A stretch of 64,000 nt of DNA from an uncultured Chloroflexia bacterium (GTDB lineage: Bacteria > Chloroflexota > Anaerolineae > Anaerolineales > UBA4823). The notes beneath the pieces were generated by a model. It was not told the origin of the DNA, did no database searches, and saw only the letters and a list, made by a program, of their open reading frames with translations. Location: positions 384,007 through 448,006 of the forward strand of contig CAWIYB010000005.1 in assembly GCA_963840255.1 (NCBI GenBank). The letters are read 5' to 3'. Positions within the stretch are counted from its first letter, which is position 1, and every line of letters begins with the position of its first letter. Below, piece after piece: positions 53,876 to 62,686 of this stretch. Both the position numbers and the translations under genes were made by a program.

Positions 53876-55531
53876 ATGAGCTTAGAAGAAGAGAAAAAAC
53901 ACTGGCAGGAACGTACCGCCGGCTCCACCGACCGGCACCTCCACGAACGCAAGCCCAAATTCGAGACACCCTCGGGTATCCCACTTCCGCCCATCCTTAC
54001 CCCATCCAACCCCGACCCGGATTATATGGACCAGCTTGGCTTCCCGGGTGAATACCCTTACACGCGCGGCGTACAACCCACCATGTACCGCGGGCGTTTA
54101 TGGACCATGCGGCAGTATGCCGGGTTTGCTTCCTCCGAAGAGTCGAACCGGCGATACCGCTACCTGCTCGAACAGGGGCAGACAGGACTCTCGGTAGCAT
54201 TCGACCTGCCCACCCAAATCGGCTATGATGCCGATGACCCAATGGCTCAGGGCGAGGTGGGTAAAGTGGGGGTATCGATTTCCTCGCTGCAGGATATGGA
54301 AACCTTGTTCCAGCAGATCCCGTTGGGTAAAGTCTCCACCAGCATGACCATCAATGCGCCTGCCTCCATCCTGCTAGCGATGTACATAGCAGTCGCCAGA
54401 CGCCAGGGTGTGGAGACGAAGACCCTGCGTGGGACGATCCAAAATGACATTCTGAAGGAATATATCGCCCGCGGCACCTACATCTTTCCACCAGCCCACT
54501 CCATGCGCCTGGTCACGGATGTGTTCCGCTACTGCCAGCAAGAGTTACCCCATTGGAATACCATCAGCATCTCGGGTTATCACATCCGGGAAGCCGGCTC
54601 AACAGCAGTACAGGAAGTGGCGTTTACATTAGCCAATGCCATCGCTTATATCCAGGCTGCCATACAGGCAGGTTTGGACGTGGATGAGTTCGCCGGGCAG
54701 CTTTCCTTCTTTTTTAACGCACACAACAACTTCCTGGAAGAAGTGGCTAAATTCCGCGCCGCCCGCAGGCTGTGGGCACGCCTGATGCGAGAACGATTTA
54801 AAGCCAAGCAAGACAGCTCGCTGATCCTGCGATTCCACACACAGACCGGCGGCTCGACGCTCACCGCCCAACAGCCCGAGAATAATGTGGTGCGGGTGGC
54901 ATTGCAGGCATTTGCCGCGGTGATGGGCGGGACCCAATCGCTTCACACCAACAGCATGGACGAAGCTTTGTGGCTGCCGACTGAAAAATCCGTACGGGTT
55001 GCCCTGCGCACGCAGCAGATCATCGCCCATGAATCAGGTGTGGCTGACACGATCGACCCATTTGCTGGCTCATACCTGGTAGAGTACCTGACCGACGAAA
55101 TCGAGCAGCGAGCCATGGCATATATCCAGAAGATCGAAGAGATGGGCGGAGCACTCAAAGCCATCGAGCAAGGGTACATCCAGGGTGAGATCCAGGATGC
55201 GGCTTACCGAACCCAGCAGGAAATTGAAAAAGGTGAGCAGGTGGTGGTGGGAGTCAATGCATTCCAGAGCGACGAGAAAATCTCCCTGGAGCGTTTGAAG
55301 GTTGATCCGGCGATTGAAGCTTCCCAGCGCGAGCGGCTGAGGATAATACGCATCAAACGGGATGCCGGCAAGGTCACCCAGCTGCTCAGTCAACTTGAAT
55401 TGGGAGCCAGAGGAACAGCAAACCTTATGCCGCTAATAGTCGATTGTGTGGAAAACGATATCTCCCTGGGCGAAATCTGCGGTATTTTACGCACGGTGTT
55501 CGGAGAATATCACCCACCGGCTTGGGTATAA
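53876..55531 (+). CDS. Methylmalonyl-CoA mutase family, catalytic (N-terminal) subunit
   Basis: 551 aa with [19 protein letters not shown] and [14 protein letters not shown] motifs. No B12-binding domain is present in this ORF. Confidence 0.9.
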
Positions 55532-55561
55532 GGAGCAAGAATTCAGCATGTAGAGGTAGCT

Positions 55562-55972
55562 ATGCCTGAGATCAAACGCATCCACCACATCGCCGTACTG
55601 GTCGAAGATATCGAGGCTTCATTGAAGTTTTGGCAATCTGTCCTTGGGATTGAACCTTCGCATATCTCGGATTATCCCCAGGAGGATGCCCGCATCGCCT
55701 TTCTTCCCCTGGGAGAATCGGAAATCGAGCTCGTCCAACCGACCAGACCTGATTCTGGATTGAGCCGCTTCCTGGAGAAACGTGGTCAGGGCATGCACCA
55801 CCTATGCCTTGAAGTAACCGACCTGCGAAGATTAATGCAAGAGCTGACGGAAAAAAATGTTCAGCTGATCAACGATGAACCGAGAATGGGGGAGGACGGT
55901 CGTTTATATGCCTTCATCCACCCGAAAAGCACCAGTGGAGTGCTGGTGGAGCTGTATCAGCTGCCAAAATAA
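55562..55972 (+). CDS. Methylmalonyl-CoA epimerase (VOC superfamily)
   Basis: 136 aa with IHHIAVLV.DIE, GMHHLCLEV and SGVLVEL segments. It is adjacent to the mutase. Confidence 0.85.
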   Translation: MPEIKRIHHIAVLVEDIEASLKFWQSVLGIEPSHISDYPQEDARIAFLPLGESEIELVQPTRPDSGLSRFLEKRGQGMHHLCLEVTDLRRLMQELTEKNVQLINDEPRMGEDGRLYAFIHPKSTSGVLVELYQLPK

Positions 55973-55981
55973 TTCTGCTGT

Positions 55982-57127
55982 TCATAAACTGCCGATAAGG
56001 GTTTCGATTTCTGTGGCGAGCGGTAGAGAGACGTTTGGAATGCTCGCCAGGCCTTTCATACCCATCTGGCGATAGATCAGGCCAATATCCTGCTCGAGGT
56101 CTTCCACCGCCCAGGCTGCCTTGCGATAATCCCAAATCTGGCTTGAGTTGGCGCTTTCCAATTCCATCATATGTAGCCTGAATGCCAGCTTTTCGACGAG
56201 GCGCTTGTTAAGCTCCTTTTTTTCGCCCGGGATGATCGGGCGGGGGATACGGTCAGAAATACCAACCTGCTCGCAATAGTCATGGATGCGTAAACCAACC
56301 TGGCGCCACGGTTGCACCTGGGCGTAACTGCCCTGTGGGAATAAGCGCATGTAGAGCGGAACCAGATCAGGATGATCACGCTGAAGAATGCGCATGAAGA
56401 ATTCTTTTTGCTGGTCCGCCATGGTTAAACCTCCTGCAAGGACGAATTTCCCACCGTGCCTGGCAGTCCATTTTGCCAGAGCTTGCATGTTCTGGTCATC
56501 ATCGCATAGACCGGGCAGTAACGGCATCGCCACCGTCCCGGTGAGTATACCTGCCTGGGCTATTTCTTCCATCGCTTTGAAGCGCAGCTCCGCCCTGGGT
56601 GCCAGACCCTCTAACCGGGAGCAATCGGCGTAATGGGTCAATTCAGGGGTGGAAATGATGCTAAACGCCACCACCGCCCTGGAATGCAGGTTGATGGCTT
56701 GAAGCAGGTCAAGATCACGCGTGACCAGAGGAGAGCGGGAGAGCACGAAGACAGGAAAGCCAAGCTCGAGGCAGACTTCCAGCATCTTACGGGATAGCTG
56801 GAACTTACGTTCTGCGGGCTGGTAATCTCCCGTGAAGACCAAATCCACAGGCAGGCGACTCAATGCTTTACGCAGCAACTGGGGTGCGTTTTCCTTCACC
56901 TTGATCAGGTGCGAAAATTCATCCGCTTCGGCGTCGTATACAGCCTCAGATTCCTGCGGCTTATGAGGGATATATTTCCGTTCCCTGGAGTAACAAAACG
57001 CGCAACCGTGCTGGCATCCCAGGTACGGGTAGGCGCTGTAGCGGGTCCAGAACCAATGGTCAGCGCGCTTGCCCTTATTGAGAATGGTCTTGGGCTGGTA
57101 GCAGACAAAACACGTTTTCGAAGCCAT
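55982..57127 (-). CDS. Radical SAM protein (SPL/Rv2578c-like)
   Basis: 381 aa with the cluster motif GCQHGCAFCY near the N-terminus. The overall layout resembles the spore-photoproduct-lyase-like family. Confidence 0.7.
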   Translation of the reverse strand: MASKTCFVCYQPKTILNKGKRADHWFWTRYSAYPYLGCQHGCAFCYSRERKYIPHKPQESEAVYDAEADEFSHLIKVKENAPQLLRKALSRLPVDLVFTGDYQPAERKFQLSRKMLEVCLELGFPVFVLSRSPLVTRDLDLLQAINLHSRAVVAFSIISTPELTHYADCSRLEGLAPRAELRFKAMEEIAQAGILTGTVAMPLLPGLCDDDQNMQALAKWTARHGGKFVLAGGLTMADQQKEFFMRILQRDHPDLVPLYMRLFPQGSYAQVQPWRQVGLRIHDYCEQVGISDRIPRPIIPGEKKELNKRLVEKLAFRLHMMELESANSSQIWDYRKAAWAVEDLEQDIGLIYRQMGMKGLASIPNVSLPLATEIETLIGSL

Positions 57128-57174: not shown

Positions 57175-57597
57175 CTATTCTAAGGTAGTGAGCACGATCA
57201 CGTGCTTGTTCACCGCCTGTTGCAAACTCAGCGGATCAAGCTGACCATCTGCGCCTACACTCGCATTAAACCCTCCGGCAAAGCGCGGATTTTCCTTGAT
57301 GAAGGCCCTCAGACCTTGTTCCACACCTGGGTCGTCTTCGACTGCTTGAGCGTGGGCTGGAAATAGCTGGCCCTTTAATAGGATCTTCACCGCAGCACCA
57401 TCGCATAAATTACGCCACCAGGTCCTCGTTCTGTAGCTGACGGTTAATAAATTGTTATCTACGCGCAGATATCCAACAGGCACATGATAGGGCTTCCCAC
57501 TTTTACATCCATTAAAGTAGATGATCATCGTATTTCCGCTGAGCATGCCATGCAGGGGGGATTTTAATATCCATTCCATGAGGGGGTTAAACCACAT
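57175..57597 (-). CDS. DUF385 / deazaflavin-dependent nitroreductase-family split-barrel protein
   Basis: 140 aa with G.KSGKPYHVPVGYLR..L.VS......WWRNL, typical of the family. Confidence 0.6.
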   Translation of the reverse strand: MWFNPLMEWILKSPLHGMLSGNTMIIYFNGCKSGKPYHVPVGYLRVDNNLLTVSYRTRTWWRNLCDGAAVKILLKGQLFPAHAQAVEDDPGVEQGLRAFIKENPRFAGGFNASVGADGQLDPLSLQQAVNKHVIVLTTLE

Positions 57598-57670: not shown

Positions 57671-58190
57671 TCACGGCAACATTGCTGCTAATGTCGCCCG
57701 GCGTTCGGCATAAGCCTGGTCTTCTTGCAATGGGGTGCATTCTTCCAGCTCACGCTCCTGCAGCAGCAGGTTGCAAGCGAACGCCATGCAGGTGGCTTCA
57801 CCGCACTGTTTACAATTCGTTTGGGGCAGCAACGTCCAAATGTCCAGGGGGCGCGGGGCATGTTTCATTGCCGTCATTGCCACCAGCTCCTCCCGGTGGT
57901 CCCTGGTGGCGTTGATGGCGTCTACCAGCGCTTTGAATAATTCCAGGCCTTCTTCAGTATCCTTGACCTTGGTGATGTAGGCTTTTTCTGAGTATAAGGA
58001 TATGAAACCCGGCTGTCGGCGCAGGGTGAGGGTGCAGCTTTCTGGATTATAGGAAATTACATTAGGTAATGTCGCCAAATAGGGAAGCACATCGTCCAGC
58101 TTGCGTGAGGGATCGCCGATCACAATGAGTCTTGCCCGGCTCTGCCAGGCAAGGCAATACTTTTACCAGGGTGATTGACTCCAAATACAT
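57671..58190 (-). pseudogene. Fe-S-binding protein (C-terminal CFeSP-type 4Fe-4S domain) with apparent N-terminal frameshift
   Basis: The C-terminus LLPQTNCKQCGEATCMAFA matches the PF04060-type Fe-S motif. The long ORF offers no ATG, only a GTG at 58123. An ATG at 58190 opens MYLESITLVKVLPCLAEPGKTH in another frame, and the two join if a single T near 58125-58130 is removed (..GKTH/VIGDPSRKLDDVLPYL..). Confidence 0.55.
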
Positions 58191-58263
58191 GGCCGACCTG
58201 CTATTTCAACATGCTGCTGGTAACCTGAGTGATGTCCGCACCGGGCACCTCGATCATTACCTT

Positions 58264-58425
58264 TCAACCACCCTCCAGCAGCTCACGAGCCTTCCCTTTG
58301 AAGTGGGTTTTCAGGAATGCTAACGCATCCTGGGCATCATTATCAATCAGGATGCGGATCAGCTCTACGATTTCGGTATCATCCAGTACAATGTTGACTC
58401 CTTTTTTCAAATTAATACCCTCCAT
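58264..58425 (-). CDS. Small ORF ending at (or reading through) an in-frame TGA
   Basis: MEGINLKKGVNIVLDDTEIVELIRILIDNDAQDALAFLKTHFKGKARELLEGG then TGA (58266-58264). The same frame stays open for 20 more codons (KVMIEVPGADITQVTSSMLK) up to a TAG at 58203-58201. It falls below the ORF-track cutoff. Confidence 0.3.
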   Translation of the reverse strand: MEGINLKKGVNIVLDDTEIVELIRILIDNDAQDALAFLKTHFKGKARELLEGG

Positions 58426-58525
58426 CCTACTCAGTCCTAAGATCGTAGTATTGCTTTAGCCCCCACCCCAACCCCTCCCCCGCAGGTGGGTGAGGGGCAA
58501 GTTATCCATTTACAGCAGCTCTAAG

Positions 58526-58768
58526 CTAAACCAGCACTTCATCGCGCGATGGGACCCTACCCATACACACCAATTTTTCATTCACCACCAGGCAGGGAGC
58601 AGAGAGTACAGATGTGTACGCCTCGATATGAACCGAATCTTTCAGCTCGGTGATTGAAATCTCAAGCTCCGGCTGCTCATTCCGCAAGGAACGCTGGGCA
58701 GCCACCACGGTTTGCCTAACGGCATAGCGCTAAGCGGAATGGTAGCTGAGGATCTTCAGATCAATCAT
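58526..58768 (-). pseudogene. Decayed thioredoxin-like (redox-active disulfide protein 2 family) paralog
   Basis: ATG 58768 overlaps the acr3 stop (ATGA). The product [42 protein letters not shown] aligns residue for residue with the intact paralog at 59841-60095, but the CxxC site reads S-A-TAG-R. Confidence 0.6.
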
Positions 58769-59841
58769 GCCGGATACATTCTCTTCTTCAGCCAGAAAGC
58801 CACATTCACCAGGCCGATCATCACCGGCACCTCCACGAGCGGTCCAATCACTGCCGCGAATGCCTGCCCGGACGAAATCCCAAACACTGCCACAGCGACG
58901 GCAATCGCCAGCTCGAAGTTGTTGCTGGCAGCGGTGAAAGACAGCGTCACCGTCTGCGGGTAAGTGGCACCAATAGCCCGGCCCATAAAGAAGCTGCCCA
59001 GGAACATGACCACGAAATAGATCAGCAGTGGTATGGCTATGCGCACAACATCCAGGGGAAGCTGGACGATATACTCCCCCTTCAAGCTGAACATGACAAT
59101 GATGGTAAACAGCAGCGCAACCAGGGTAATCGGGCTGATCTTGGGGATGAATTTAGTGTGGTACCATTCCTTCCCCTTGGCCCTCACCAGGAAGAAGCGG
59201 GTGAGAAACCCGGCAATGAATGGGATCCCCAGGTAGATAAAAACACTCCTGGCAATCTCGCTGATGGTGATATTTACCGTTGTTCCTGCCATCCCGAACC
59301 AAGTTGGAAGCACTGTAATGAAAACATAGGCAAAGACGGAATAAAACAACACCTGGAAAACGCTGTTGAATGCCACCAGCCCAGCGGCATACTCGGTATC
59401 ACCCTTAGCCAGGTCATTCCAGACGATGACCATGGCAATGCAGCGCGCCAGACCGATCAGGATCAGACCGGTCATATAATCTGGGTAATCGTGGAGGAAA
59501 ACCACCGCCAGGAAGAACATCAGGATCGGACCGATGATCCAGTTCTGTAGCAACGAAAGCCCCAGCACCTTCCAATTCTTGAACACATCACCCAGCTCTT
59601 CATAACGTACCTTCGCCAATGGCGGGTACATCATCAGGATGAGCCCAATAGCGATGGGAATATTGGTAGTGCCGACCGAAAAGCGCTGGTTGAATGTAGA
59701 AACTGCCTCAGGAAAAAAGTATCCCAATGCCGCCCCAAGACCCATGGCAAGGAAGATCCACAGGGTGAGGTAGCGGTCAAGGGTGGATAGCTGACCCGAA
59801 ACACCAGAAGGTTTTGCCGCAATGACATTCTGAGCACTCAT
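58765..59841 (-). CDS. acr3: Arsenite efflux permease, ACR3 family
   Basis: 358 aa with [19 protein letters not shown] and about 10 TM segments, matching the ACR3/ArsB(BART) family along its whole length. Confidence 0.92.
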
Positions 59842-60095
59842 CAGGCTGTCTCCATCTCAGCATTCACCAACCAGGTGGTCACTTCGGCTTCCGTGGGGAT
59901 GCGCCCGGCACAGACCACTTTTTCGTTGATCACCAACCCAGGTGTACCCAGGATGGGGTACTTTTTTATATCCGCCCAATCGGTCACCTTGATCACCTCA
60001 GCTTGCATACCCATGGTGGTCACTACTTTACGGGCGATGCTTTCGACCTTTTTACAATTTTCACAGCCTGACCCTAAAACTTTCACCGTTAGCAT
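59841..60095 (-). CDS. Thioredoxin-fold redox-active disulfide protein (TM0996/MTH895 type)
   Basis: 84 aa, [34 protein letters not shown], with an intact CxxC. Its stop overlaps the acr3 start (ATGA). Confidence 0.85.
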
Positions 60096-60160
60096 GACAA
60101 ACCTCCAAATATGAAATTTCCTGACTTTTTCAGCCGATTAAGCTTATTGACTAAGGTTCA

Positions 60161-60611
60161 CTAAATGACCTGAATATCCGGCTCGATGACCAACTCAGAC
60201 TTGATCGAATTCGCCACCAGGCTGTACTTTTGAGCGGATTTTAGCGCCCGTCGTATTCGCGCCTCGATTGACCTCAGGTGCATCCTGACCCGCGTCCACA
60301 CGAATCCCAGGGGTAAGCCTGACCATGGTGAATGTCTCCGTGTGGTCAAGAGCGATCAGCTTGGTGCCTTCCGCGCGGCATTCATAGGCGAGCAGGTTGA
60401 TCTTCAACCTCTCACACGACCACAGGAACATCATCATGACGCAGGTATTAACTGCCGCCACAAAGGCGTCTTCCGGGGTTAACACACCAGGGAGTCCCTT
60501 TGCATCGGGTGGAGCGGAAAAATCCATCTCCGGTCCATTGCCCATGCGCAACCGCCCTGAGTGTTCTCCTTTCCATTCAACCGTTGTGTGGTAGAAAGCA
60601 GTCTGGCTCAC
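60161..60611 (-). pseudogene. OsmC/Ohr-family peroxiredoxin-like protein with apparent C-terminal frameshift
   Basis: ORF 60611-60195 carries the OsmC core (..AAVNTCVMMMF..). The family-like C-terminus IEARIRRALKSAQKYSLVANSIKSELVIEPDIQVI lies in the frame of ORF 60349-60161. The switch falls at about 60255-60290. Confidence 0.65.
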
Positions 60612-61354
60612 TTAGCTTTACCCTTGAACCAAAATTTCTTATATGCTTCACGAATGCCATCTCGATAAGCTGGTTCTTCTCCGTATGGGATTGGGTTATA
60701 TATCTTGGCTGTATCCAGAAGCTCGCTGATCGTTTCTTCACTGGGAAATTTTCCGGCTTCGGTAAACTGCTGGAAAATCAGCGGCAACCCAACGATGGTC
60801 ACTTCCTTCCCGGAGATGAGGATATTCTGGATGGCAATGCCCGACCCGCAAGCGCAGGCAGCAACTTCAGACTCCTGGGTCTGTGCTGCCTGAGGCGAAC
60901 CAACCATCTCGAGCTCAATGACGTCACCCAGCCTTCTATCCCATTGTTTCCCTAATAAACCATCGACCGTGTCAGCAATCTTGCCGGCAGTGAGTTCTAC
61001 AGCCTGCAGACCGGCCTCATTCAACCGGTGTCTTCCCTCTGGATGTGCGAGGCGATTTTCTTCAATGATGTCACGCACCATGATGCTGGCGGCCGGTTTA
61101 TGGGAGTACATCTCCGTCGCTCTTGCTGCACAACGTAAATTGCACCCATCGATTGCGATGGTGGGATAAAACCTGGCGAATGCCCGGTCGCTCTCCCCAC
61201 CGGCTAAAAAAAGCGGCAGGCAGATGGTCACGGTATCATTCAGACGCAGGTGCTCCAGTACGCGCAAGGCTGCCAGGCGCGTAATTGTGCCCTCGGGTAG
61301 CTCCTCCCCCGAGCAGGCGATGATGCCCACTTTTTTCCTGGGCAGGTCAACCAT
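60608..61354 (-). CDS. DGC-domain (putative zinc/metal-binding Cys-rich) protein with C-terminal extension
   Basis: VGIIACSGEE..ICLPLFLAGG..IAIDGCNLRCA is the DGC pattern. A further ~110-aa C-terminal region contains CACGSG. The start is either 61354 (MVDLPRKK) or 61375. Confidence 0.7.
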   Translation of the reverse strand: MVDLPRKKVGIIACSGEELPEGTITRLAALRVLEHLRLNDTVTICLPLFLAGGESDRAFARFYPTIAIDGCNLRCAARATEMYSHKPAASIMVRDIIEENRLAHPEGRHRLNEAGLQAVELTAGKIADTVDGLLGKQWDRRLGDVIELEMVGSPQAAQTQESEVAACACGSGIAIQNILISGKEVTIVGLPLIFQQFTEAGKFPSEETISELLDTAKIYNPIPYGEEPAYRDGIREAYKKFWFKGKAK

Positions 61355-61781
61355 TGCCGCCTCCTTCACTTCCACTGGTCAGCTCAGCAATGACAAGGGA
61401 TATCTCATCCGCCAGTGCCTGAGCAAGCTGCTGTCCACCTGGACTAAGCTCGGCGATGCCCTGCGGCTTGAGATGCTTATAACGGCGGTAAACCTCCAAA
61501 ACGGCATACTCCTGGGCAACCTTACCCCCACTTTCCTGCACCATTTTCGTGGCACAGGCCAGTTTACAACCATCGATGGTGATGGCAGGATTGTTGGCAA
61601 CGATTGATCGTGCTTCCGCCTCACCCAACACCAGTTTCGATAACGCCACCAGCCTCGTTTCGGCGGGGCATAAATCTTCGGTGAGAATGTAAGCCGCTTC
61701 CCGGCTGACTGTGCCATAAGTTTTTCCTATCCCACTGCACGGCACTATGACCAACTTGAAGGTCCGGTCATCTGACGTCAT
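61347..61781 (-). CDS. DGC-domain (putative zinc/metal-binding Cys-rich) protein
   Basis: 144 aa with LVIVPCSGIGK..ITIDGCKLACA. It overlaps both neighbouring genes. Confidence 0.7.
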   Translation of the reverse strand: MTSDDRTFKLVIVPCSGIGKTYGTVSREAAYILTEDLCPAETRLVALSKLVLGEAEARSIVANNPAITIDGCKLACATKMVQESGGKVAQEYAVLEVYRRYKHLKPQGIAELSPGGQQLAQALADEISLVIAELTSGSEGGGNG

Positions 61782-62227
61782 TCGCTTTTCGTCTCCTGTT
61801 CAGCCTCATGCTTGATTATTGTGAAGTAGGTCTGGGGCTCCAATAATTTCTCGAGTTGATAACCTCCCGGTGCAGGCTGGATCACTGCCAGCCAACCGTT
61901 GCTATAGGGGTCTTGGTTGATGATCTCGGGGGTCGTCTGCATCGCCGGATTAACCTCCACCACCTCACCGGCGACAGGAGAGGCCAGACTGATATCCGCC
62001 TTGATGGTCTCGATAACGATCAGCTCATCGCCGTAAACGATCACAGATCCGACGGGTTGCACTTCGGCAAATGCCACATCACCACTGCGCTGCTGCAGGT
62101 AATCGGATATGCCGATGCGTATCCGATCGGCCTCTTGTTTGGCCCAAAGACCTTCTTCAGTATAGTAGCGGTCGGTGGCGACCTGGAAGGTGAATTTATC
62201 AACCGTAAACTCAAGGGTATCTGACAT
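61778..62227 (-). CDS. Glycine-cleavage H-like lipoyl-carrier protein
   Basis: 149 aa. ETIKADISLASPVAGEVVEVN aligns with the GcvH lipoyl-lysine region ESVKAASDIYAPVSGEVVEVN, and the Lys is conserved. Confidence 0.8.
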   Translation of the reverse strand: MSDTLEFTVDKFTFQVATDRYYTEEGLWAKQEADRIRIGISDYLQQRSGDVAFAEVQPVGSVIVYGDELIVIETIKADISLASPVAGEVVEVNPAMQTTPEIINQDPYSNGWLAVIQPAPGGYQLEKLLEPQTYFTIIKHEAEQETKSE

Positions 62228-62616
62228 TATTCTAAAATCCCTTGCTCAACTTTCATGGTCCTCACCGGCTCGGTCTCTGGAAGCGGATTACACTTCGGGC
62301 AGGGACAATCAGCCATCCTTGCCGGATTTATTTGGAGTGGTTTATCACCACTCAGCCAGTTGGCGTGGTCGATGAGATCAAACACTTCCGGTTTGACCAC
62401 GCGGTAGAAAATCCGGGCGCCTTCACGGCGGTCTTCAACCAGCCCGGCTTCGCGCAGCACCATCAAATGTTGCGAGATATAAGCCTGCCGGCAGCCAAGC
62501 ACTGCTTCGAGGTGACAGACGCACTGTTCCCCCTCCCGCAGCGTTTCCAGGATCATCAACCGAGAAGGGTGCATCAGGGCTTTAAAAAGTTTGGCAGAAG
62601 GGTCAAAATCAGTCAT
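62227..62616 (-). CDS. arsR: ArsR/SmtB family metalloregulatory repressor
   Basis: 129 aa. LFKALMHPSRLMILETLREGEQCVCHLEAVLGCRQAYISQHLMVLREAGLV is a winged HTH with a CVC metalloid-site motif, and the C-terminus adds CPCPKC. Its stop overlaps the next start (TAATG). Confidence 0.9.
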   Translation of the reverse strand: MTDFDPSAKLFKALMHPSRLMILETLREGEQCVCHLEAVLGCRQAYISQHLMVLREAGLVEDRREGARIFYRVVKPEVFDLIDHANWLSGDKPLQINPARMADCPCPKCNPLPETEPVRTMKVEQGILE

Positions 62617-62660
62617 GGTAGATATTTTCCATTGAATGCCAAAAAAAACCTTACGGAAGG

Positions 62661-62686
62661 ATATTCAAGTTATTGAATATATTATA
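62661..62686 (-). promoter_or_regulatory. Candidate ArsR operator overlapping a -10 box
   Basis: Perfect 8-4-8 palindrome ATATTCAA-GTTA-TTGAATAT (62661-62680). On the minus strand a TATAAT (62686-62681) directly abuts it, about 45-70 nt upstream of the arsR ATG. Confidence 0.6.

Follow-up and report, generated by a model that had tools for sequence, protein, structure and literature searches.

In classical ars operons (arsR-acr3/arsB-arsC), one coupled unit holds the arsenite permease ACR3 and an ArsR/SmtB repressor that has a CVC motif and whose own promoter carries an inverted-repeat operator. All of these features recur in a gene cluster that we analysed on the minus strand of a 64,000-nucleotide stretch of DNA from an uncultured Chloroflexia bacterium (contig CAWIYB010000005.1, positions 384,007 to 448,006; hereafter the window, numbered from its first letter). 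However, this cluster lacks arsC and carries five to eight extra genes without a characterised role in any ars operon, which encode a lipoyl carrier, two DGC-domain proteins, an OsmC-like protein, an ArsE-type thioredoxin, a candidate selenoprotein and an Fe-S protein. A related arrangement, the ArsR5-ArsP-ArsE-DGC operon of Pseudodesulfovibrio mercurii ND132, also places an ArsE-type PF13192 thioredoxin and a PF08859 DGC protein under ArsR and beside an arsenical permease (bioRxiv 10.1101/2022.10.17.512643). In contrast to the present locus, the ND132 operon as described in that preprint has a single DGC gene and no GcvH-like or OsmC-like gene, and its DGC protein is listed as being of unknown function and is mislabelled as a diguanylate-cyclase motif (bioRxiv 10.1101/2022.10.17.512643). 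Although the operon in the window is itself of known ars type, its accessory module is outside every characterised ars function, and this thiol-rich module around a lipoyl carrier points towards an arsenic-handling strategy of anaerobes that is as yet unstudied.

Domain calls on the window proteins were made with Pfam and NCBIfam profiles and their curated cut-offs. The features of the cluster, in the order of transcription, are as follows.

62661 to 62686, minus strand: arsR promoter with operator-like repeat (-10 box TATAAT at 62686-62681, repeat at 62680-62661)
62227 to 62616, minus strand: arsR, ArsR/SmtB repressor, 129 amino acids (HTH_5 50.5 bits; HTH_metalloreg; NF033788 94.9 bits)
61778 to 62227, minus strand: GcvH-like lipoyl carrier, 149 amino acids (GCV_H 98.4 bits)
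61347 to 61781, minus strand: DGC1, short DGC-domain protein, 144 amino acids (PF08859 55.1 bits, threshold 27)
60608 to 61354, minus strand: DGC2, long DGC-domain protein, 248 amino acids from the ATG at 61354 (PF08859 57.1 bits, threshold 27)
60161 to 60611, minus strand: OsmC-like gene, frameshifted, 149 amino acids when repaired (OsmC 39.6 bits after repair)
59841 to 60095, minus strand: ArsE-type small thioredoxin-like protein with CENC as its CxxC motif, 84 amino acids (Thioredoxin_3 86.9 bits; TIGR00412 87.8 bits)
58765 to 59841, minus strand: acr3, arsenite efflux permease, 358 amino acids (TIGR00832 463.3 bits, cut-off 282.8)
58502 to 58768, minus strand: pseudogene of a CxxC-less Thioredoxin_3 paralogue (KILSYHSAQRYAV type), with two in-frame TAG codons
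58201 to 58425, minus strand: small selenoprotein candidate, ~70-74 amino acids (start ATG 58425 or TTG 58410; UGA 58266-58264; hairpin 58249-58231)
57671 to 58190, minus strand: Fe-S protein, frameshifted, ~172 amino acids when repaired (PF04060 44.8 bits)

The cluster is a genuine ars operon of an Anaerolineae-type Chloroflexota bacterium: an ArsR with an As(III)-type cysteine motif, an ACR3 gene in the same coupled unit and an inverted repeat at the arsR promoter occur together. All the genes named in an earlier note on this DNA, made from the letters alone, are present on the minus strand with Pfam or NCBIfam support. The translational coupling that it reported was likewise borne out, both from arsR to the OsmC-like gene (TAATG between arsR and the GcvH-like gene, ATGA between the GcvH-like gene and DGC1, an 8-nucleotide overlap of DGC1 and DGC2, and GTGA between DGC2 and the OsmC-like gene) and further downstream, where TGATG joins the thioredoxin gene to acr3 and ATGA joins acr3 to the thioredoxin-like remnant. 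The gap said to precede the thioredoxin gene does have a length of 65 nucleotides, but this distance is measured from the stop codon of the second frame of the OsmC-like gene. No terminator-like hairpin lies between genes of the cluster. As had been stated, no arsC, arsA or arsD is found across the whole 64-kb window, and neither an arsM nor an AhpD-like gene occurs anywhere in it.

The arsR promoter carries a perfect 8-nucleotide inverted repeat with a 4-nucleotide non-palindromic spacer (ATATTCAA-TAAC-TTGAATAT) that abuts the TATAAT box. The feature at 62661-62680 that had been called a perfect palindrome is thus an inverted repeat at the arsR promoter, but one of 8-4-8 form with a spacer rather than a continuous palindrome. 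On its own, a single repeat of this kind would not be a surprising chance find in 64 kb. The consensus TATTCA-N6-TGAATA, with at most two mismatches allowed, is present upstream of 43 of 48 orthologous arsR genes, compared with 39 of 4000 segments drawn at random from the same loci, and its single perfect copy in the window lies at 62662-62679. Because the consensus is conserved upstream of arsR orthologues and has one perfect copy in the window, we read the repeat as very probably the ArsR operator, and the sole one in the cluster. The CVC motif of ArsR (Cys32/Cys34) is kept in all 48 orthologues examined. A C-terminal CxCxxC motif is formed by Cys104, Cys106 and Cys109, and the cysteines of ArsR are conserved in 94-100% of the same 48 proteins.

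A survey of gene neighbourhoods, which the earlier note had proposed as a check, was carried out by searching the window proteins with tblastn for gene content and order against 80 loci (L001-L080), the best 80 of at least 558 confirmed stretches from a scan of species-representative genomes. Almost all of these loci come from metagenome-assembled genomes (MAGs) of Anaerolineae or other Chloroflexota, with one labelled Zixibacteriota; L001 is the closest to the window, and the same gene order is also seen on one contig binned as Acidobacteriaceae. The GcvH-like, DGC1, DGC2 and OsmC-like genes occur in this order in essentially all 80 loci. Among the 55 loci with full flanks, this four-gene core is present in 54-55, ArsR in 53 and the ArsE-type thioredoxin in 51; ACR3 (counted within 6 kb) is found in 27, the Fe-S protein in 20 and the small open reading frame (ORF) in 16. 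The linkage is thus strongly conserved in related loci, contrary to the first condition under which the earlier note would have given up its reading.

Recurrent neighbours of the 80 loci were clustered without prior labels. A frequent one is a fusion of an ArsR helix-turn-helix domain to ArsC of the low-molecular-weight protein tyrosine phosphatase type (~265 amino acids, 36 loci, for example L041:16555-17352). Others are an AhpD/CMD-type CxxC protein (29 loci), an extra Thioredoxin_3 protein (26), a radical S-adenosylmethionine (SAM)/SPASM enzyme (21), a paralogue of the Fe-S protein (15) and TauE/FmdE (15), together with ArsA (10), ArsM (9), ArsD (9) and an ArsP-like permease (9). Among the best NCBIfam matches of the AhpD/CMD protein (for example L073:3071-3664) are an 'arsenosugar biosynthesis-associated peroxidase-like protein' and an ArsM selenoprotein's AhpD domain, neither of which reaches its cut-off.

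A scan of metagenomes with distant single-domain DGC proteins as seeds returned 80 loci (GC 30-68%) of a second, divergent DGC lineage. A GcvH-like gene adjoins the DGC gene in 69 of these loci, and 48 encode a single protein of ~283 amino acids, with an N-terminal DGC and a C-terminal GcvH domain (for example L096:4099-4947, L105:4113-4961 and L135:4117-4959); in each of the three fusions tested, the two Pfam domains have their full length. The fusion gene is followed by a short DGC gene and then by one for a long protein of DGC2 type, which shares the CxC motif and the C-terminal domain with DGC2. Although many of these contigs are short, the surroundings include Thioredoxin_3 (33/80), ArsR (31), ArsP (10), ACR3 (10), ArsM (8) and ArsC (8). 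Two apparent fusions in the reverse order, GcvH then DGC (P0374 and P0477), were rejected as frameshift artefacts in which the linker is garbled H-protein sequence. Read-throughs of this type, across a gene pair that overlaps by ATGA, could mislead surveys of domain architecture.

An OsmC-like gene is absent from all 48 fusion loci and present in only 5 of the 80 second-lineage loci, whereas it is found wherever the H-like protein is free-standing (the 80 Anaerolineae-type loci plus L083, L084, L087 and L144). Because the OsmC-like gene tracks the free-standing H-like protein in this way, the lipoyl carrier appears to have either the OsmC-like protein or the fused DGC domain as its partner. 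The absence from fusion-type loci also places the OsmC-like protein outside the universal core, which, judged from gene content across both lineages, consists of the lipoyl carrier, a short DGC, a long DGC2, an ArsE-type thioredoxin and ArsR.

The GcvH-like protein scores below both NCBIfam GcvH cut-offs (NF002270, 110.9 against 117 bits; TIGR00527, 97.2 against 115.85 bits). Its predicted lipoyl-lysine, K76 in the motif ETIKA, is invariant in 65 of 65 sequences (that of the window and 64 from metagenomes) and is also conserved in the Anaerolineae-type set. Its neighbours are arsR and DGC genes in 80 of 80 loci, with no gcvT or gcvP among the recurrent neighbour clusters. Recruitment of a GcvH-like carrier from glycine cleavage to a redox or stress module with cysteine-based partners has parallels in LbpA of the sHdr sulfur oxidation system and in GcvH-L of the SirTM/macrodomain operon. 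However, the partners there are Hdr/DsrE/TusA or sirtuin and macrodomain proteins, whereas here they are DGC, ArsE-type and OsmC-like proteins, with a regulator and neighbours that are ars genes.

DGC1 has exactly three invariant cysteines (C15, C72 and C76). The same three are universal or nearly so among 30 diverse representatives of the DGC family, in which a fourth, on strand 2, is common. An AlphaFold2 (AF2) model of DGC1 (mean predicted local distance difference test score, pLDDT, 90.2) is an alpha/beta/alpha sandwich of flavodoxin-like type, and, going by the predicted secondary structure, two of the cysteines would sit where strands 1 and 3 end C-terminally (the DGC motif being at strand 3) and the third where the next helix begins. 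The best Foldseek matches of the model are generic flavodoxin-like, SIS or lumazine-synthase folds (best E 0.011, TM-score at most 0.47).

In DGC2, six cysteines are invariant, four in the DGC domain (C14, C45, C71 and C75) and two in a CxC motif (C167 and C169), and a conserved C-terminal domain (GLPLIFQQ...) is present. The DGC2 family has 6029 database matches, of which the best 120 have 65-88% identity and are mostly 248 amino acids long. A profile search with DGC2 against sequences in the PDB gave no match, and its AF2 model, built from a 19-sequence alignment, was poor (pLDDT 59) and not used in the fold search. The C-terminal CxC domain of DGC2 has homologues (BLASTP E 4e-8) in stand-alone proteins of ~100 amino acids with an N-terminal CC motif, which are found in 7 of the 80 loci (for example L052:15356-15664) and match no Pfam or NCBIfam family. 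A relationship between this CC/CxC domain and ArsD was considered and rejected, as there is no sequence similarity to ArsD. With 367 clusters at 50% identity, the DGC superfamily is a small one; among its members are tandem DGC-DGC proteins such as P0364, in which a CSC linker joins a half resembling DGC1 to one resembling DGC2. The existence of these tandem proteins argues that DGC1 and DGC2 work as a pair.

We hypothesize that the module is an As(III)-inducible protein-thiol relay that captures trivalent arsenicals and either passes them on or sequesters them, a reading to which we give just short of an even chance. ArsR would occupy TATTCA-N6-TGAATA next to the -10 box and, as expected from its family, would be released when As(III) binds Cys32/Cys34. 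One translationally coupled mRNA would then supply both the ACR3 arsenite exporter and the conserved accessory module, in which the relay members would be a lipoylated H-like protein, DGC1 and DGC2 (with Cys3 and Cys4+CxC sites, respectively), the OsmC-like cysteine protein and the ArsE-type CxxC thioredoxin. The dihydrolipoyl arm and the DGC cysteine sites would capture As(III), or possibly trivalent methylarsenic (MAs(III)) or aromatic As(III). Capture would spare the lipoyl enzymes of the cell, and the metalloid would be handed on for export or further processing while ArsE and the OsmC-like protein keep the thiols exchangeable.

In ArsR, ArsD and ArsA, As(III) is known to be coordinated by three thiolates; dihydrolipoyl groups bind As(III) and, above all, MAs(III); and ACR3 exports As(III). 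The sequences themselves establish the gene content, the coupling, the operator, the conserved ars context, the fusion of DGC to GcvH and the invariant lysine and cysteines, whereas we infer lipoylation, arsenic binding, the direction of transfer and the benefit to the cell. By analogy with the ArsD-ArsA metallochaperone system, which also has a small soluble three-cysteine protein encoded in an ars operon, a comparable hand-over of As(III) is proposed for DGC1 and DGC2. However, the DGC fold is flavodoxin-like alpha/beta/alpha whereas that of ArsD is a thioredoxin fold, and the window lacks ArsA.

Several observations weigh against a relay of this kind. ACR3 lies within 6 kb of the module in only about half of the full-flank loci, and the module is therefore not an obligatory partner of ACR3. 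No lipoate ligase or synthase is among the recurrent neighbours of the 80 loci. Pfam describes DGC as a putative zinc site only, and the DGC cysteine sites could hold zinc or an Fe-S cluster, in a purely structural or a redox-active role. The DGC1 model has no Foldseek match in the PDB with E <= 0.001 and thus no informative solved relative. Regulators of the ArsR family can also sense other metals or sulfur species. Finally, the OsmC-like, Fe-S and second thioredoxin-like genes are disrupted in the window, so the full system may not be functional here. The proposal in the earlier note of a dedicated lipoyl/dithiol relay for metalloid or peroxide stress, in which the lipoyl carrier could be an As(III)-binding chaperone or decoy or the reductant for OsmC, accordingly stands in part: the conserved ars linkage, the recurrence in two lineages and the invariant lysine favour it, but ACR3 is not obligatory and the OsmC-like protein is not part of the core.

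The relay would be of interest because arsenic toxicity is classically attributed to the binding of As(III) or methyl-As(III) to the dihydrolipoyl groups of 2-oxoacid dehydrogenases. To our knowledge, a lipoyl protein has not been shown to take part in any arsenic-resistance system. Here, a lipoyl carrier, sometimes fused to DGC, is fixed in the ars clusters of hundreds of Anaerolineae-type genomes and in a compositionally diverse second set of environmental lineages. The known non-efflux defences against methylarsenite, ArsH and ArsI, need oxygen, and organisms that carry the module are abundant in anoxic soils, sediments and digesters. A bolder reading, less likely than not but with a realistic chance of being right, is that the GcvH-like/DGC module constitutes a previously unknown O2-independent route for trivalent (organo)arsenicals, with a dedicated lipoyl carrier as the arsenic acceptor, which would make it a protein-bound analogue of the dithiol antidotes directed at the same group on which arsenic exerts its toxicity, with DGC as a new As(III)-binding or transfer fold, and with low-potential chemistry provided in some genomes by the small Sec/Cys (selenocysteine or cysteine) protein, the Fe-S protein and the radical-SAM/SPASM enzyme.

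The module offers concrete, clonable candidates, a cassette of four to five genes, for anaerobic arsenic handling, and would give a testable role to DGC, a Pfam domain without a function. The earlier statement that GcvH-like and DGC proteins have no characterised role in arsenic resistance agrees with a full-text literature search, which found only the ND132 DGC gene, although subscription journals were thinly covered and an earlier description is possible.

The regulator and the mixed neighbourhoods also bear on whether the module is specific to arsenic at all. It might instead serve against thiol, sulfur or soft-metal stress in general, or in the maturation or repair of lipoyl proteins, while standing under an ArsR/SmtB-family regulator and often being parked by ars genes. 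The absence of ACR3 within 6 kb in about half of the loci fits this possibility, as do a sub-threshold match of ArsR to BigR-type sulfur sensors (72.7 bits against a cut-off of 155) and the TauE/FmdE, radical-SAM/SPASM and VKOR genes among the neighbours in some loci. However, the CVC motif of As(III) type is invariant, two independent lineages keep the module beside ACR3, ArsP, ArsM, ArsC, ArsA or ArsD, and the sole published DGC neighbourhood that we found is an ArsR-ArsP-ArsE operon. We consider a module without arsenic specificity to be quite improbable.

The thioredoxin encoded upstream of acr3 belongs to the TIGR00412 'MTH895/ArsE family' (87.8 bits against a threshold of 62, with the active-site sequence GCENC). 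This NCBIfam family takes its name from ArsE, which the ND132 preprint calls an organoarsenical resistance protein (bioRxiv 10.1101/2022.10.17.512643), and it invites the question of whether the module is a thiol- or lipoyl-driven reductase for pentavalent arsenicals such as arsenate, methylarsenate and aromatic arsonates. Electrons would then run from the ArsE-type thioredoxin, or in some genomes from the Fe-S protein and selenoprotein pair, to the DGC cysteines and on to the lipoyl arm, and the trivalent product would leave through ACR3 or ArsP. The components are all redox-active thiol, selenol or Fe-S proteins, the 64-kb window has no arsC, and ArsM and ArsP recur in the second lineage. 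However, a conventional ArsC, often fused to ArsR, stands beside the module in 36 of 80 loci, so an extra arsenate reductase is not obviously needed. Moreover, the module proteins lack the catalytic motif of any known arsenate reductase, and the habitat is largely anoxic, where As(III) is presumably dominant. A reductase therefore appears improbable to us, though a little less so than a module without arsenic specificity.

The OsmC-like protein scores 39.6 bits against the Pfam threshold of 27.5 when its reading frame is repaired, whereas the ORF in frame A alone, at 24.7 bits, falls below it. Its cysteine at the peroxidatic position in helix 1, Cys57, is invariant in 75 of 75 sequences and aligns with a cysteine of Ta0195 (2onf), which, with VCA0330, is one of the closest solved relatives, both uncharacterised. 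The canonical resolving cysteine (KYC motif in the C-terminal helix) is replaced by serine (KYS) in all 75 sequences, and there is a different invariant cysteine, Cys78.

These features bear on a further alternative, a lipoyl-dependent antioxidant system in which the OsmC-like protein, with AhpD-like proteins in many relatives, would act as a thiol peroxidase reduced by the dihydrolipoyl H-like protein. Arsenic would induce the system through oxidative or thiol stress, and DGC and ArsE would recycle the lipoyl group. Ohr/OsmC and AhpD systems do draw electrons from lipoylated proteins, as in Xylella Ohr and in AhpC/AhpD/DlaT/Lpd of Mycobacterium tuberculosis, and the present clusters resemble these in encoding a lipoyl protein together with a protein whose OsmC fold is confirmed and, at 29 of 80 loci, with an AhpD/CMD-type CxxC protein. 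In contrast to those peroxidase systems, however, the canonical resolving cysteine is missing, the clusters have no dihydrolipoamide dehydrogenase (Lpd), the OsmC-like gene is absent from the fusion loci and rare in the second lineage, and the neighbours are arsenic genes rather than oxidative-stress genes. An antioxidant function has, in our estimate, the same low probability as an arsenical reductase. Because the OsmC-like protein lies outside the core and lacks the resolving cysteine, the idea raised previously that the lipoyl carrier serves as the reductant for OsmC is unlikely to be the main point.

The relay remains our preferred interpretation of the conserved module, but the state of individual genes in the window has to be considered separately. 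Alignment of the DNA with L001-L004 reveals a 1-nucleotide insertion near 60268 that splits the OsmC-like gene over two frames, and the Fe-S gene carries a 1-nucleotide insertion near 58129. These are the only uncompensated coding insertions or deletions (indels) in ~13.7 kb compared with L001 and L003, and ~8 kb of flanking genes have none. In the second thioredoxin-like gene, one glutamine and one tryptophan codon are both TAG. This second copy fails TIGR00412 (33.5 bits, no CxxC, two stops), and we regard it as a genuine pseudogene. The earlier description of a thioredoxin-like remnant is right in that the gene is defective here, but this CxxC-less Thioredoxin_3 paralogue is a conserved one, and L001, L003, L008, L009 and others carry it intact.

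It is quite possible, if on balance unlikely, that the accessory genes downstream of DGC2 are partly a non-functional relic in this genome, and that arsR, acr3 and the intact upstream genes are what matters; this would hold independently of the other alternatives. The two insertions and the two TAG codons fit such a relic, as does a substitution in the small UGA-containing gene that breaks one hairpin pair and changes a conserved glycine, and the flanks of ~8 kb are free of uncompensated indels. However, related long-read MAGs also contain isolated frameshifts, as in the GcvH-like gene of L001 and in the split ACR3 matches of L006, L018, L060 and L064, and assembly error is therefore a live alternative for both indels, which may reflect either local gene decay or assembly error. 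The GcvH-like, DGC1, DGC2, ArsE and ACR3 genes, in addition, are intact and highly conserved.

The small TGA-containing ORF in the earlier description is a candidate new selenoprotein gene. The TGA is conserved in 19 of 19 orthologous loci (including L001, L003, L004 and L008-L011), with a conserved peptide, KVMIEVPGAG..N.FK, and then a real stop codon after it. A hairpin resembling a selenocysteine insertion sequence (SECIS), with a 7-bp stem and the loop GGUGC, starts 14 nucleotides past the UGA and is 92.5% paired across the 19 sequences. Three of its pairs have compensatory changes, at synonymous codon positions, and its covariation score was reached by none of 500 shuffles and was far lower in slid controls. 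In the window, the substitution mentioned above (58235 region; pair 25-35) affects this stem. The ORF is thus a candidate member of an undescribed selenoprotein family (...ELLEGG-U-KVMIEVPGA...), which would be a separate and smaller novelty.

Most database entries for this small protein end at the UGA (48 amino acids), and no Pfam or NCBIfam model matches it. Full-length homologues with cysteine at this position, P0123 and P0127 (EGGCKVMIEVPGAG), each occur on two independent contigs (L162-L165), in the contexts ArsR-small-GcvH and FeS-Trx3'-small-FeS-rSAM/SPASM. A few variants with tryptophan, arginine or glycine at the selenocysteine position may be sequencing errors. No tRNA was found in the window. 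In relatives, a sub-cluster consists of an Fe-S protein (178 amino acids), a CxxC-less Thioredoxin_3 protein, the small Sec/Cys protein, a second Fe-S protein (172 amino acids) and the radical-SAM/SPASM enzyme (L162:721-3887, L163:1713-4816; 21/80 loci). The best NCBIfam match of this enzyme, below cut-off, is a tungsten-cofactor oxidoreductase maturase, and its gene is absent from the window. With a radical-SAM/SPASM enzyme in the sub-cluster, the small protein might be one that is modified post-translationally.

The true start of the Fe-S protein is the ATG at 58190 (MYLESITLVKVLPC...), and its N-terminus (MYLESITLVKVLPCLAEPGKIIVIGDPS...) is in one frame in 24 of 24 relatives checked. An N-terminal domain with a conserved LPC cysteine precedes a PF04060 [4Fe-4S]-type domain, whose cysteines are at ORF positions 104, 107, 112 and 129. 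The protein had been described as of the corrinoid iron-sulfur protein (CFeSP) type, and with the CFeSP large subunit, AcsC/CdhE, it does share the ~33-residue [4Fe-4S] PF04060 domain, in which four cysteines are conserved and which is N-terminal in the latter. However, the present protein has only ~172 amino acids and an unrelated N-terminal domain, and its identification as a CFeSP was rejected, as it ends ~40 residues past the Fe-S domain and has no TIM-barrel or corrinoid-binding domain. Its matches to CFeSP chains span only their residues 5-51, and the cluster domain of the CFeSP large subunit is its only solved relative.

Directly downstream on the same strand, a gene at 57175-57597 (minus strand) encodes a protein resembling F420H2-dependent quinone reductases (PF04075, 25 bits), and a radical-SAM protein with a weak match below the Pfam cut-off is encoded at 55982-57127 (minus strand). 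These two genes are syntenic in the closest relatives only and were left out of the system. Beyond them, the region at 53876-55972 (plus strand) encodes the large subunit of methylmalonyl-CoA mutase (758 bits) followed by a glyoxalase-fold protein, ordinary metabolic genes unrelated to the cluster.

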